Source of the DNA: an uncultured Bacilli bacterium
Lineage (GTDB): Bacteria > Bacillota_I > Bacilli_A > RF39 > UBA660
Reading direction: 5' to 3'
Length of the DNA stretch: 64,000 nt
NCBI GenBank assembly: GCA_947626095.1
Contig: CANQQV010000001.1
Span: forward strand, 32,001-96,000
Within the stretch, counting starts at the first letter, position 1. Every line of letters begins with the position of its first letter. Positions 12,056 to 21,315 of the stretch are shown in pieces. Both the position numbers and the translations under genes were made by a program. A model generated the notes under the pieces. That model searched no databases and was not told the origin of the DNA. It saw nothing but the letters and a program-made list of their open reading frames with translations.

Positions 12056-12463
12056 GAACCAAATGCAACAAAGTTAGAAAAAGAAGGTTTAGGTTATGTC
12101 GTTGGAAGTATTGGTGAATTATCTGGTGAAATGCCATATACTGCTTTCTATGCTCGTCAAAGTTATCTAGATAAAAATGAAGATCTAATAAAAAAATTTA
12201 ACAATGCTATTAATAAAGGTTTAGATTATGTTAAAACGCATAATGAAAAAGAAATTGCAAAAATCATACTACCACAATTTCCAGATACCTCACTTAATGA
12301 TATTGAAGCAATTGTTAAAAGATATAAAGATGCTGATTCATGGCTTAATAATACAACCATAAGTGAAGAATCATATCGAAATTTAGAGAATATAATGATA
12401 GATAATGATTTATTAGATGATTACGTTCCATTTAAAGATTTAGTAATTAATTTAAATGACTAA
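12056..12463 (+). CDS. 3' fragment (135 aa) of a NitT/TauT (NMT1/THI5-like, YtlA-like) ABC substrate-binding protein gene; 5' part separated
   Basis: Frame reads EPNATKLEKEGLGYVVGSIGELSGEMPYTAFYARQSY..., matching the conserved (F)EP..LEKEG.GY.V.S.G..SG..PYT region. Similarity stops just upstream, with an in-frame TAG at 12029-12031 and no signal peptide or start. Confidence 0.85.
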   Translation, partial: EPNATKLEKEGLGYVVGSIGELSGEMPYTAFYARQSYLDKNEDLIKKFNNAINKGLDYVKTHNEKEIAKIILPQFPDTSLNDIEAIVKRYKDADSWLNNTTISEESYRNLENIMIDNDLLDDYVPFKDLVINLND

Positions 12464-12876
12464 AATCTTAGAAGTTAAAAATATAAGTAAAAAGTTTAAT
12501 ACTACTAAAGGTGAAATAGAAGCTATTAAAGATATTAGTTTTACTGTTAATGAAGGAGAATTTATTGCCATAGTTGGCACCTCAGGTTGTGGTAAAAGTA
12601 CCTTACTTTCCATTTTAGCTAATCTAACCAATCAAACTAATGGTTCTATTAAATATTATAAAGATAATCCTATTATTGGTTACATGCTCCAAGAAGATGC
12701 TTTATTTGAACATTTAAAGATCATTGATAATGTTTATCTCGGTTTAAAAGTTCAACATAAATTAACCGAAGATAACAAACAATATGCTTTAGACTTATTA
12801 AAAAAATATAACTTAGATAAATTCATTAATCAAAAACCAAGCGAATTATCTGGTGGTATGAAACAAAGAGTTGCTT
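12456..12876 (+). CDS. 5' half of a split NitT/TauT ABC ATPase (YtlC-like)
   Basis: Walker A GTSGCGKST, Q-loop YMLQED and signature [10 protein letters not shown], then an abrupt TGA created at the element junction; no Walker B or H-loop. Confidence 0.92.
12864..12876 (+). repeat. Left attachment core (attL) CAAAGAGTTGCTT
   Basis: Identical to 20974-20986; in frame with the ATPase (codons Q-R-V-A-L). Confidence 0.9.
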
Positions 12877-12901
12877 GAATACTACAAACACACTTTCACA
12901 T

Positions 12902-12932
12902 AAAAAAACTGATAAAATTATTTATCAGTTTT
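12902..12932 (-). terminator. Intrinsic terminator closing the cargo operon just inside the left element end
   Basis: AAAACTGATAAA-ATTA-TTTATCAGTTTT hairpin with a T-tract on the minus strand. Confidence 0.6.
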
Positions 12933-13922
12933 AATATCTTTAACTTTTTTAGGTTTTATTGCTAAGAAACAAATTGTTCCCGCTATACCTACTAAAGCAA
13001 CTCCAATAACAATCTCAACTATTTTAGAAATTAAACTATCATCATCTTCTGAATCAGTAGATTCTTCATCACTACCATCTTTATCTTCAGTATCATCATC
13101 TGTATCATAGTCATAATCATAATCACCATTATCATTGTTATCATCGTCATCTTGTTTATCATCATCTGTAGACGTTTTATCATCAGAGCTGTTATCATTT
13201 TGATTACTACCATTATTTCCTGAATTGTTTGCTGAACTATTATTGTTATTATTTGATCCATTATTAGAACTTCCCGAATTTGAATTATTACCAGAAGATC
13301 CATTATTATTTGAACCACTATTATTACCAGAAGATTGATTATTATTTTTATCATCATCTTTACTATCATCTGGTTTACTATCTTCACCAGGTTTCTTATC
13401 GTCTTTATCTTCTGTTGTACTACTTACTTTAAAAGTAAATGATTTATCTTTACTTTCTGGAGCAACAGTATTTAATTTCCAAGTATTATCTAGAATCATT
13501 AATTTAGTACACTCTAAACTATACTTCACTTCTTTTGTAGTACCATTTTCAAAAATAATGTTACCTATAACTAGTTCTTTATTGATATTTAATAAATTAT
13601 TTTTATTACTAACTCCACCAGTTGTTACTTTAATGTTTATTGTTTTATTTTTCTCATCATGTGTAACATTTTGTGTATATTCTTTTTTAGTTAGTCCACT
13701 ATCTAAGTTAATCTGTTTGTATTTAACGTTACCACTATATTTAAGTGTTATATCAATACCACCAACAAATCCATCTTCAAAATGAATAGAAGTTTTAATG
13801 TTTCCGTTACTAGTCTCATCAAACACCATTTTAGTAGCAGCTTTAACAGAAGTAAGTGAGATAAAGATGCTTATAAGAAGCAATCCAATAGTTGTAATTA
13901 TTCTCTTTTGCATCTTTATCAT
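12918..13922 (-). CDS. Membrane-anchored cohesin-like scaffold protein
   Basis: Signal peptide (..VKA), about 140-aa beta-sandwich with cohesin-like patterns (GIDITLKYS, KELVIGNIIF), long N/S/G/D-rich linker, C-terminal TM plus basic tail; 4-bp overlap with the upstream dockerin-bearing gene. Confidence 0.55.
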   Translation of the reverse strand: MIKMQKRIITTIGLLLISIFISLTSVKAATKMVFDETSNGNIKTSIHFEDGFVGGIDITLKYSGNVKYKQINLDSGLTKKEYTQNVTHDEKNKTINIKVTTGGVSNKNNLLNINKELVIGNIIFENGTTKEVKYSLECTKLMILDNTWKLNTVAPESKDKSFTFKVSSTTEDKDDKKPGEDSKPDDSKDDDKNNNQSSGNNSGSNNNGSSGNNSNSGSSNNGSNNNNNSSANNSGNNGSNQNDNSSDDKTSTDDDKQDDDDNNDNGDYDYDYDTDDDTEDKDGSDEESTDSEDDDSLISKIVEIVIGVALVGIAGTICFLAIKPKKVKDIKTDK

Positions 13923-19358: not shown

Positions 19359-19460
19359 ATGTCATATAAAATTATTAATTTATATCAAAATATAAACTCT
19401 GAAATTATTAATTATAAACTATCACTTATTCTTAAATTAATGGAGTCAAATAATGATTAA
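19359..19460 (+). CDS. 33-aa small ORF overlapping the LSR2 start (candidate directionality/accessory factor)
   Basis: AAAAGGTGA RBS then ATG: MSYKIINLYQNINSEIINYKLSLILKLMESNND*; overlaps the LSR2 ATG by 8 bp. Confidence 0.5.
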   Translation: MSYKIINLYQNINSEIINYKLSLILKLMESNND

Positions 19461-20958
19461 AGTTGGTATATATTTAAGATTATCTAAAGAAGATAAAGAT
19501 AAAATAAATATTGAAGACAATAGTGAATCTATTAAAAACCAACGTCATCTTCTTTTAGATTACATCTCTAAACATCAAGATTACATCTTAGTAAATGAAT
19601 ATTGTGATGAAGATTTATCTGGTGCCGGTACATATCGTCCTGAATTTACCAGATTAATTAAAGATTGTGAAAACCACAAACTAGATCTTGTCCTTTGTAA
19701 AAGTCAATCAAGATTCTCTCGTGATATGGAAGTAATTGAAAAATACTTACATAACAAGTTTAATGAATGGCACATTAGATTTATTAGTTTAGCTGATAAT
19801 GCTGATACTAATAATCTCGGTAATAAAAAAGCTCGTCAGATAAATGGTTTAGTTAATGAATGGTATTTAGAAGATATTTCAAATAATATCCGTAGTGCTT
19901 TTAATATTAAAATGAAACAAGGTGAATATATCTCACCTTTTGCTCCTTATGGTTATGAAATATCTTCTAAAGATAATAATAAACTTATTATTGATCCTAT
20001 TGCTTCTTACATAGTAAAAGATATTTATACTTTCTACTTAAAAGGTTATAGCTATACAAAAATAGCTAATTACTTAAATAATAAAAATATCCCTAGTCCC
20101 TCATACTATAAATATCTAAAAGGTAGTAAATTAAATATCATCAGTAATAAACCTCGTAAAGATATTCTCTGGTCTCCTAATGCTATAAAACATATTTTAA
20201 CTAATGAAATATATATTGGTAACTTAGTTCAAGGTAAAAGAACAACTATTAGTTATAAAAATCATAAAATAATTACTAAAGAACAAAGTAAATGGATTAA
20301 GTCATTAAATACCCATGAACCAATAATAAATAAAGATACTTTTACTAAAGTCCAAGAATTAATTAAGCAAAAAGCAAGACCTCTAAAAAACAACAAAATT
20401 ATTCACTCTTTTTCTCATAAAGTCTATTGCCTTCATTGTCACCATTTAATGCGTAAGAAAAATTCTCATACTCACGAATATCTTTTCTGTCCTAATCCTA
20501 ATTGTTCTAACACTTCCATTAGATATGATACTTTAGAACAAATAATCTTATCTAAAATAAATAACTTAGTTAAAAAATACTATAACAAAGATTTACTTAA
20601 TAAATATCTCAATAACCAAGATCAATTAAATAATTTAATAAAAGAACAAAAAGATTTAGAAACTAAAATAATTAATCACCAAAATATCTTATTTAGTATT
20701 TACGAAGATAGATTAAATAAGCTTCTTACTACTACTGAGTTTAAAGACCTAACAACTAACTACCAAAAAAGAAAAACTATCTACCAAAAACAACTAAACC
20801 AAATTACAAAGCAAATCTCTTTATATAATCCCCCTTCTCTTAACTTTAAATCATTTACTAAACTAAATTATCTTATAACTAATGAATTTATCTCTAAGAT
20901 CTTCATTAGTTCAATAAAAAACCAAGTAAGAACAATTAATATTATCTGGAACTTTTAG
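19453..20958 (+). CDS. Large serine recombinase LSR2 (TnpX/SpoIVCA-like architecture)
   Basis: YLRLSKED catalytic Ser, SESIKNQ, DEDLSGA, KSQSRFSRD, APYGY, ILTNEIYIG, THEPII, CLHC..CPNPNC Zn ribbon, coiled coil. Confidence 0.95.
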   Translation: MIKVGIYLRLSKEDKDKINIEDNSESIKNQRHLLLDYISKHQDYILVNEYCDEDLSGAGTYRPEFTRLIKDCENHKLDLVLCKSQSRFSRDMEVIEKYLHNKFNEWHIRFISLADNADTNNLGNKKARQINGLVNEWYLEDISNNIRSAFNIKMKQGEYISPFAPYGYEISSKDNNKLIIDPIASYIVKDIYTFYLKGYSYTKIANYLNNKNIPSPSYYKYLKGSKLNIISNKPRKDILWSPNAIKHILTNEIYIGNLVQGKRTTISYKNHKIITKEQSKWIKSLNTHEPIINKDTFTKVQELIKQKARPLKNNKIIHSFSHKVYCLHCHHLMRKKNSHTHEYLFCPNPNCSNTSIRYDTLEQIILSKINNLVKKYYNKDLLNKYLNNQDQLNNLIKEQKDLETKIINHQNILFSIYEDRLNKLLTTTEFKDLTTNYQKRKTIYQKQLNQITKQISLYNPPSLNFKSFTKLNYLITNEFISKIFISSIKNQVRTINIIWNF

Positions 20959-20973
20959 TGTCTTTACTACTTT

Positions 20974-20986
20974 CAAAGAGTTGCTT
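20974..20986 (+). repeat. Right attachment core (attR) CAAAGAGTTGCTT
   Basis: Identical to 12864-12876; followed by TAATCAGAACACTAGCT (L-I-R-T-L-A). Confidence 0.9.
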
Positions 20987-21315
20987 TAATCAGAACACTA
21001 GCTATTAAACCTGATATTCTTCTTTTAGACGAACCATTTTCCGCTTTAGATTTTCCAACTAGTCTCGAAGTAAGTAATGATGTCTATAAAATAATTAAAA
21101 ATGAAAAGAAAACTGCTATTATGGTTACTCATGATATTGCATCAGCCATTAGTATGGCTGATAAGATAATTGTCTTAAGTAAAAGTCCAGCGATAATTAA
21201 AAATATCTATGATATAAACTTAGATAATAAAGATATTCCTACCACTAATCGTCAGGATAATAAATTTAATTACTATTATGATTTAATATGGAAAGATCTT
21301 GATAACATTGTCTAA
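20974..21315 (+). CDS. 3' half of the split NitT/TauT ABC ATPase (YtlC-like)
   Basis: [26 protein letters not shown] (Walker B and D-loop) ... MVTHD (H-loop); in frame with the track ORF 21121..21315. Confidence 0.92.
   Translation, partial: [113 protein letters not shown]

Follow-up and report, generated by a model that had tools for sequence, protein, structure and literature searches.

Serine-recombinase islands split an ABC importer ATPase gene at the same codon in several species of uncultured Bacilli

Genes interrupted by serine-recombinase elements are a known kind of bacterial arrangement. The description of gin, which lies in gerE of Bacillus cereus ATCC 10987 and works with GirC and GirX, reports that precise excision rebuilds the gene (PMC5595907). 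The target of gin is a sporulation regulator, removal takes place in mid-sporulation and the element encodes its own helper, GirX. In Bacillus and Clostridioides, skin (in sigK) and SPbeta (in spsM) likewise split a coding gene and carry a large serine recombinase at one end. They are kept in the germ line of spore-forming hosts (PMC4191935, PMC5025042, PMC5499854). Elements of this type derive from prophages, whole or reduced to remnants, and measure 14-135 kb. The fdxN element (XisF) of heterocyst-forming cyanobacteria is also a serine-recombinase element inside a functional gene; in cyanobacteria such elements leave the chromosome in a terminal cell type, more than one may interrupt a single gene cluster, and the searched passages of a survey that counts 48 serine-type xis genes contain no occurrence of "ABC" or "transporter" (PMC4874684). 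A further group carries mobilisation or resistance genes and uses other targets. In these small non-phage cassettes, of the Tn4451/Tn5397 type (TnpX, TndX) and SCCmec (Ccr), large serine recombinases excise and insert the DNA without a separate factor. Here we describe an 8,110-base island that encodes a large serine recombinase, LSR2, and divides the gene for the ATPase of an ATP-binding cassette (ABC) importer. It lies in a 64,000-base stretch (the window; contig CANQQV010000001.1, positions 32,001 to 96,000) from the genome of an uncultured Bacilli bacterium of the lineage RF39; UBA660.

The island shares with gin a non-phage make-up, a serine recombinase, a position inside a short coding region and a short common core (9 bases in gin, 13 here). 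It differs in its target, an ABC importer ATPase, in that no helper gene was found and in that its excision is predicted. It consists of three genes, none of them of phage type, unlike skin and SPbeta, which are prophage-derived, interrupt mother-cell genes and have known directionality factors. The cyanobacterial elements belong to hosts of another phylum with a different cell biology. NCBIfam ranks XisF among the best matches to LSR2, far below the cut-off (85 bits vs 375), and the best such match, CcrB, also falls far short (100 bits vs 900). In contrast to Tn4451, Tn5397 and SCCmec, the island has no mobilisation gene that we could find, and it is aimed at a single conserved run of codons within a single gene. 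Word searches of the literature turned up no report of a serine-recombinase element in an ABC ATPase gene. Within the known kind of gene-interrupting elements, the island is a new family with a new target.

A preliminary description of this stretch had proposed that the insert splits the ATPase gene exactly at a 13-base repeat, that its removal restores one protein with all motifs in register and that the insertion itself creates a stop codon; all of this was borne out. Script-based joining of 12456-12876 to 20987-21315 yields one frame of 750 bases, that is, 249 codons and a stop, with no internal stops. The two copies of the repeat, CAAAGAGTTGCTT, are spaced 8,110 bases apart (attL and attR, Table 1). 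They are its only two matches in the window, a count that none of 100 shuffles reached, and just two copies occur in the entire 1,615,532-base assembly. Inspection of the joined translation reveals, in order, what we take to be the Walker A, Q-loop, signature, Walker B, D-loop and H-loop motifs. Pfam assigns the N piece to positions 2-118 of the 137 in ABC_tran (E 2.7e-23) and the start of the C piece to positions 115-137 (E 0.0024, under the curated cut-off), so the two pieces abut in the profile. A contiguous ABC_tran domain with ordered motifs is obtained only once the island is removed, and intact orthologues measure 247-256 aa. The N piece ends in a TGA (12876-12878) directly behind the repeat, supplied by the left end of the island, and the C piece has no start codon of its own ahead of the H-loop methionine.

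The empty site tells the same story in related species. In all five congeners with an uninterrupted gene that were compared (G008, G004, G013, G014 and G001, where G numbers denote species genomes of the genus collection and G000 the source genome), the alignment falls into two blocks that stop at 12875-12881 and restart at 20974. Across the empty sites compared, the two blocks overlap by 12-18 bases, with no target duplication beyond the shared core. The source genome is a metagenome-assembled draft of 34 contigs with 26% G+C and an estimated contamination of 7.9%. The split of the ATPase gene by the island is real, and its coordinates are exact.

Table 1. Features at the split ATPase gene and its surroundings (window positions).
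Feature	Position	Strand	Basis or remark
LSR1, 540-aa large serine recombinase, right end of the ~20.2-kb element, not in the 8.1-kb island	10237-11859	-	Pfam, junctions
NMT1/THI5-like binding-protein gene, C-terminal part	12055-12463	+	Pfam NMT1 positions 181-214
ABC ATPase N piece, 140 codons (136 before the repeat)	12456-12878	+	ORF list, Pfam
attL, left 13-base core copy	12864-12876		predicted crossover GT at 12870-12871
Island left-end arm, GAATA-N3-TA-N-AGACAC type	12877-12893		inverted repeat of the right arm
Cargo gene 1, 334 aa, Ser/Asn/Asp-rich	12918-13922	-	ORF, translation
Cargo gene 2, 1,753-aa M60-like (enhancin-type) metallopeptidase	13919-19180	-	Pfam, translation
Divergent intergenic region between the M60 and recombinase genes	19181-19452		alignment, ORF lists
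LSR2, 501-aa large serine recombinase	19453-20958	+	Pfam, 12 orthologues
Island right-end arm, GTGTCTTTA-N5-TTC type	20958-20973		starts on the final base of the LSR2 stop codon
attR, right 13-base core copy	20974-20986		predicted crossover GT at 20980-20981
ABC ATPase C piece, 113 codons	20974-21315	+	translation, Pfam, omega
Permease gene of the same transporter, overlaps the ATPase stop	21299-22090	+	Pfam BPD_transp_1 E 1.6e-15

The ends of the island have the form of serine-integrase attachment sites. LSR2 is entire by Pfam and stands at the right end of the insert, its stop codon 16 bases ahead of the right repeat, and symmetric arms of the serine-integrase type flank the core. The left arm adjoins the N piece in all eight split species, and arms are present at both ends in the five species that have both junctions; once reconstructed, the element site forms a near-palindrome with GT at its centre. 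In G010, G018 and G019 the attL and attR cores differ from one another, and all differences fall before core position 6 or after position 11, which places strand exchange within AGTTG. Core differences of this pattern are what a serine integrase that crosses over at two central bases is expected to produce.

LSR2 itself is complete and conserved. Its Resolvase (3.3e-19), Recombinase (9.1e-26) and Zn_ribbon_recom (7.4e-7) domains all score above the Pfam cut-off, and its 12 orthologues are stop-free, with 111 of 534 alignment columns invariant. An R-L-S block near residue 11 and an SRFSRD block are invariant in 12/12 orthologues; these are the catalytic serine and arginine blocks of serine recombinases. 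Close relatives of LSR2 were found neither in viral contigs nor in phage or plasmid records. The best phage-record match is 37.5% identical across 70% of LSR2 and the best plasmid-record match is 42.4% identical and partial; a phage or plasmid origin of the island was considered and rejected on these partial, distant matches and the lack of a viral-contig relative. Among the three island genes, Pfam and NCBIfam reveal no phage, conjugation or mobilisation families, and with no Pfam phage family in its three ORFs (open reading frames) the island does not class as a prophage or as a case of active lysogeny.

Large serine recombinases are numerous in the genus, with up to 15 matches in a single congener (G022). 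The source genome has a third one (G000:C28:804-2249, C denoting a contig), 32% identical to LSR2. The nearest relative beyond the orthologue group, 43-47% identical, lies at 6167-7750 of a G022 contig (L032, G022:C31; L numbers denote loci); it does not adjoin the ABC ATPase gene, has no arm motifs and probably has another target site.

The remaining two island genes are cargo. In the peptidase, Pfam identifies Peptidase_M60 (E 5.6e-19), fn3 (E 6.8e-12) and F5_F8_type_C (E 1.2e-4), and the translation contains HEVGH. The second is an anchored protein with a hydrophobic N-terminus and an anchor-like C-terminal stretch; it has no Pfam family above the cut-off and no NCBIfam match, and its homologues adjoin the M60 gene in G005, G010 and G014. 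The region between the peptidase and recombinase genes is partly kept in G005 and G010 and holds no conserved small ORF. An M60-like gene 56% identical to the island's lies at 4834-10904 of a G014 contig (L126, G014:C18) with an adjoining gene for a 311-aa anchored protein. Its setting is ordinarily chromosomal (MatE, flavin reductase, Big_14 and M26 peptidase genes, no recombinase nearby), so the pair exists outside the island too; G014 has an intact ATPase gene.

To place the split among relatives, we used a collection of 27 species genomes of the genus, 21 of which hold an N-half orthologue at E 1e-35. The gene is split at the identical codon in eight of the 20 scorable species (G000, G005, G010, G042, G006, G018, G019 and G007) and whole in 12; in one more (G009) it is cut by a contig end, and the six genomes without an orthologue at this threshold are 64-96% complete. 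Both junctions lie on one contig in five of the eight split species, with island lengths of 8,110, 8,035, about 8,200, about 5,400 and 6,733 bases. LSR2 orthologues of 54-72% identity stand directly upstream of the C half wherever that flank is on the contig, and five loci from other assemblies (L042, L043, L052, L099, L100) have an orthologue of 54-59% identity in the same place. The cargo varies. The M60 and anchored-protein genes are common to the islands of G000, G005 and G010. The G018 island encodes a RhuM/Fic protein along with two genes of unknown function, and that of G019 has PrsW-type protease, zinc-ribbon, helix-turn-helix and Bro-N genes. A wider metagenome scan based on the permease gave 80 loci. 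The best was 72% identical, so no same-species locus is among them. By reading, about 67 have contiguous halves (two of these, L088 and L110, look irregular), two are split with both halves present (L052, L099), one has LSR2 and the C half only (L100) and 10 are cut by contig ends.

Trees of the locus and of LSR2 indicate that the site has been occupied more than once. On the locus tree the split state needs six changes, and well-supported branches force at least three. Two split genes have intact sisters, G019 with G012 and G018 with G023 (the split member named first); the empty site of G012 aligns cleanly with G019, the two blocks sharing 13 bases where they break. LSR2 and host trees conflict. 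On the LSR2 data, keeping the genus copies in a single clade costs 69.7 log-likelihood units (approximately unbiased, AU, test p 0.001). Strict co-descent of island and host is thus rejected for the wider sample. The groups in both AU tests reported here were named after the LSR2 tree had been seen. As judged from these trees, the LSR2 island family moves between lineages over long times, and modules may be exchanged within it.

The condition of the divided gene was assessed from NG86 estimates of omega and synonymous divergence among G000, G005 and G010, which form a clade on the locus tree (support 100/99) and share the same cargo. Synonymous divergence is 0.38-1.5 for 12 host genes around the site, 0.58-0.63 for M60 (about 1,720 codons; omega 0.30-0.39), 0.63-0.65 for LSR1, the recombinase of a neighbouring element described below (omega 0.27-0.29), and 0.87-1.06 for LSR2 (omega 0.21-0.32). 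Differences at four-fold sites are likewise 0.38-0.41 for M60 vs 0.23-0.59 for host genes. Having diverged about as much as its host, the island was, on the simplest reading, already present in the common ancestor of the three species. Against this background the ATPase halves are conserved. The N half has a synonymous divergence of 0.42-0.63 and an omega of 0.07-0.11, the C half 0.61-0.74 and 0.13-0.15, and the adjoining permease 0.66-0.78 and 0.11-0.13, with codon-bootstrap upper bounds of omega at or below 0.29. The C half has no promoter and no start codon and lies 8 kb from the N half, yet its omega resembles that of the N half and the permease. In a neutral simulation with 0.29 changes per site, a 113-codon C half stayed stop-free in 1.7% of runs per lineage, while all five C halves seen beside an island are stop-free. 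Both halves are therefore under purifying selection and the split gene is not decaying, which implies that a gene seen by selection while split must be regularly restored, whether in a subset of cells or in a fraction of the population.

Taken together, we regard the locus as an 8,110-bp non-phage integrative LSR2 island that reversibly splits a NitT/TauT-type ABC ATPase gene and leaves by precise excision, and we put the probability of this reading at roughly 0.7. LSR2 would recognise a site of about 45 bases centred on the GT, in codons just past the ABC signature motif, and would have inserted the island by attP x attB recombination. By itself or aided by a directionality factor from another locus, it would still excise the island precisely, giving a restored ATPase gene and an 8.1-kb circle. 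In the integrated state the importer would be off and the M60-like surface protease, probably directed at mucin, would be supplied. Excision could be programmed, for example in the mother cell of a probable spore former or in response to nutrient need, or it could be sporadic in the population, with excision and re-insertion and with selection acting on the empty allele. By programme or sporadically, precise excision that still restores the ATPase gene is the most likely explanation of the sequences compared. The class of the importer rests on resemblance to NitT/TauT-type importers with all NCBIfam matches below the cut-off, among them the weak likeness of the permease to SaoP/TauC/SsuC permeases.

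Several observations weigh against reversible splitting. Pfam finds no transfer genes in the island, and neither a directionality factor nor a small conserved ORF was found inside it. Recombination directionality factors are diverse and can be encoded elsewhere. The 43-base junctions expected of the restored gene and of the circle are absent from the 34 contigs of the assembly. Five public runs were also found, of which four, from two samples of one study, hold 62-84% of the sampled words; by record these are rabbit-gut metagenomes, possibly the source of the assembly, and they were searched as assembled contigs only. Comparison of the run contigs over 12300-21500 gives no joint that skips 12877-20986. 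Contigs lose rare variants, so the absence of the restored junction from them is uninformative for or against excision. The joints that were listed (e.g., 12880 to 21430 and 12762 to 20623) have a shorter side of 20-37 bases and other end points, and are taken as cross-matches from other organisms. Contigs also break near 12848-12875, which may reflect strain variants only.

The selection argument has its own counterpoints. LSR2 of G010 stands apart from those of G000 and G005 in the best tree, where a three-species clade is not rejected (AU p 0.21), and the synonymous divergence of LSR2 exceeds that of the cargo; parts of the island may have been exchanged. Low omega would also follow if islands had entered after speciation from donors that diverged in parallel, although equal synonymous divergence makes that account less simple. 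Finally, NG86 is rough in a genome of 26% G+C, and YN00 gave no value for most pairs.

Read-through from LSR2 into the C half was considered and rejected. The two frames match in G000 and G005, separated by one stop and five codons (window 20956-20976), and do not match in G010; the shared frame in the first two is probably due to chance.

The operon around the ATPase gene is interrupted a second time. The NMT1/THI5-like binding-protein gene directly upstream is also split, by a recombinase element of about 20.2 kb that occupies window positions 1-12055 and extends upstream to about G000:C1 23806. The two NMT1 pieces of the gene lie at C1:23363-23794 and C1:44092-44247, the N part about 20 kb upstream and outside the window, and together they are the sole NMT1-type binding protein in the genome. 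In relatives without the upstream element the alignment stops at 12055/12056. LSR1 and LSR2 are 24% identical, and LSR1 orthologues occupy the same place in eight congeners (G005, G010, G042, G007, G014, G003, G004 and G013). At least one of the binding-protein and ATPase genes is interrupted in 12 of 20 scorable species, and both are in five (G000, G005, G010, G042, G007) and at the metagenome locus L099. Among the cargo of the ~20.2-kb element are a 1,343-aa protein that ends in an ADP-ribosyltransferase exoenzyme domain and lies beside small proteins of the WXG100 family, a 946-aa NlpC/P60 protein, a radical SAM/SPASM enzyme, a helix-turn-helix regulator, a DUF2207 membrane protein and an ABC-2 exporter pair. 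Ahead of the operon, a GAATATA(A/C)TA..TG..AGGAGG block at about G000:C1 23180-23226 is kept in 16/16 sequences (15 relatives). We take its GAATATA(A/C)T box to be a housekeeping -10 element accompanied by a ribosome-binding site; no -35 box was recognised in the 16 sequences compared, and Rfam matched no riboswitch upstream of the binding-protein gene.

These observations bear on a bolder special case of reversible splitting, in which both elements are cut out during sporulation, the operon is rebuilt in the mother cell and the spore keeps the interrupted copy. Such a mode would resemble that of the sporulation-specific elements skin, SPbeta, vfbin, vrin and gin. The two sporulation marker genes checked, Spo0A (Spo0A_C, 114.5 bits) and SpoIVA (SpoIVA_ATPase, 345.9 bits), are both encoded, so the organism is probably an endospore former and mother-cell-specific excision would be possible. 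The co-occurrence of two unrelated recombinase elements in one operon in five species and at L099, with 12/20 species interrupted, fits a gene broken in the germ line, and purifying selection on both ATPase halves fits as well. Nevertheless, the interrupted gene encodes the ATPase of a nutrient importer and is not a known sporulation gene, the upstream box resembles what we take to be a housekeeping promoter and not the sigma-E/sigma-K type of the mother cell, and the island yielded no directionality factor under a promoter of its own. We therefore hold sporulation-coupled excision to be unlikely, though well worth keeping in view. The broader proposal, that an importer operon broken in the germ line by two unrelated elements is rebuilt by programmed double excision, on a mother-cell or nutritional signal, with cargo expressed in the "off" state, is tentative to the same degree.

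A less probable account is that insertion was one-way, leaving the ATPase dead for good, the transporter dispensable and the two pieces as pseudogene fragments whose intact look reflects a recent insertion. The lack of any excision product in contigs or assembly and of a directionality factor in the island is what this account predicts, and a dispensable locus might well be interrupted in 12 of 20 species and lack an orthologue in six of 27 genomes. It fits poorly with the age and state of the gene. Cargo that has diverged like host genes in G000, G005 and G010 means that the insertion is probably old, while the start-less, promoterless C half keeps its low omega and its upper bounds, and five of five island-adjoining C halves have stayed stop-free at a neutral expectation of 1.7% per lineage. 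Terminal branches of split species are also not longer than those of their intact sisters (G019 0.027 vs G012 0.046; G018 0.095 vs G023 0.11), and the binding-protein pieces just upstream are the only NMT1-type binding protein of the genome. One-way insertion is accordingly a poor bet. That an assembly or binning chimera placed foreign DNA inside the gene is next to impossible, even for a metagenome-assembled draft with 7.9% estimated contamination, since diverged versions of the same architecture recur in independent assemblies (G005, G010, G018, G019, L052, L099), a public-run contig spans the right junction (18259-21133) with no mismatches, 13 bases of repeat are too few to confuse an assembler and matching recombinase arms stand at the ends.

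What sets this locus above an ordinary insertion is the exact site shared across many species, the second element in the same operon and the purifying selection on both halves. Because the ATPase gene has been selected while split, the island is a genetic switch or else a mobile element that constantly turns over at one exact site. Automated annotation would call both pieces pseudogenes and record the sole NMT1-type importer of the organism as missing. The natural pair of attachment sites, together with 12 diverged recombinases, is useful for work on serine-integrase specificity, and the locus offers a case in which gene reconstitution can be tested beyond the classical genes of sporulation and heterocyst formation. 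A mucin-protease-like gene that is chromosomal in G014 can, in these uncultured gut Bacilli, ride as cargo in a three-gene island. Programmed double excision, if true, would mean that developmentally regulated reconstitution, known from genes of sporulation and nitrogen fixation, also takes in an ordinary transport operon.

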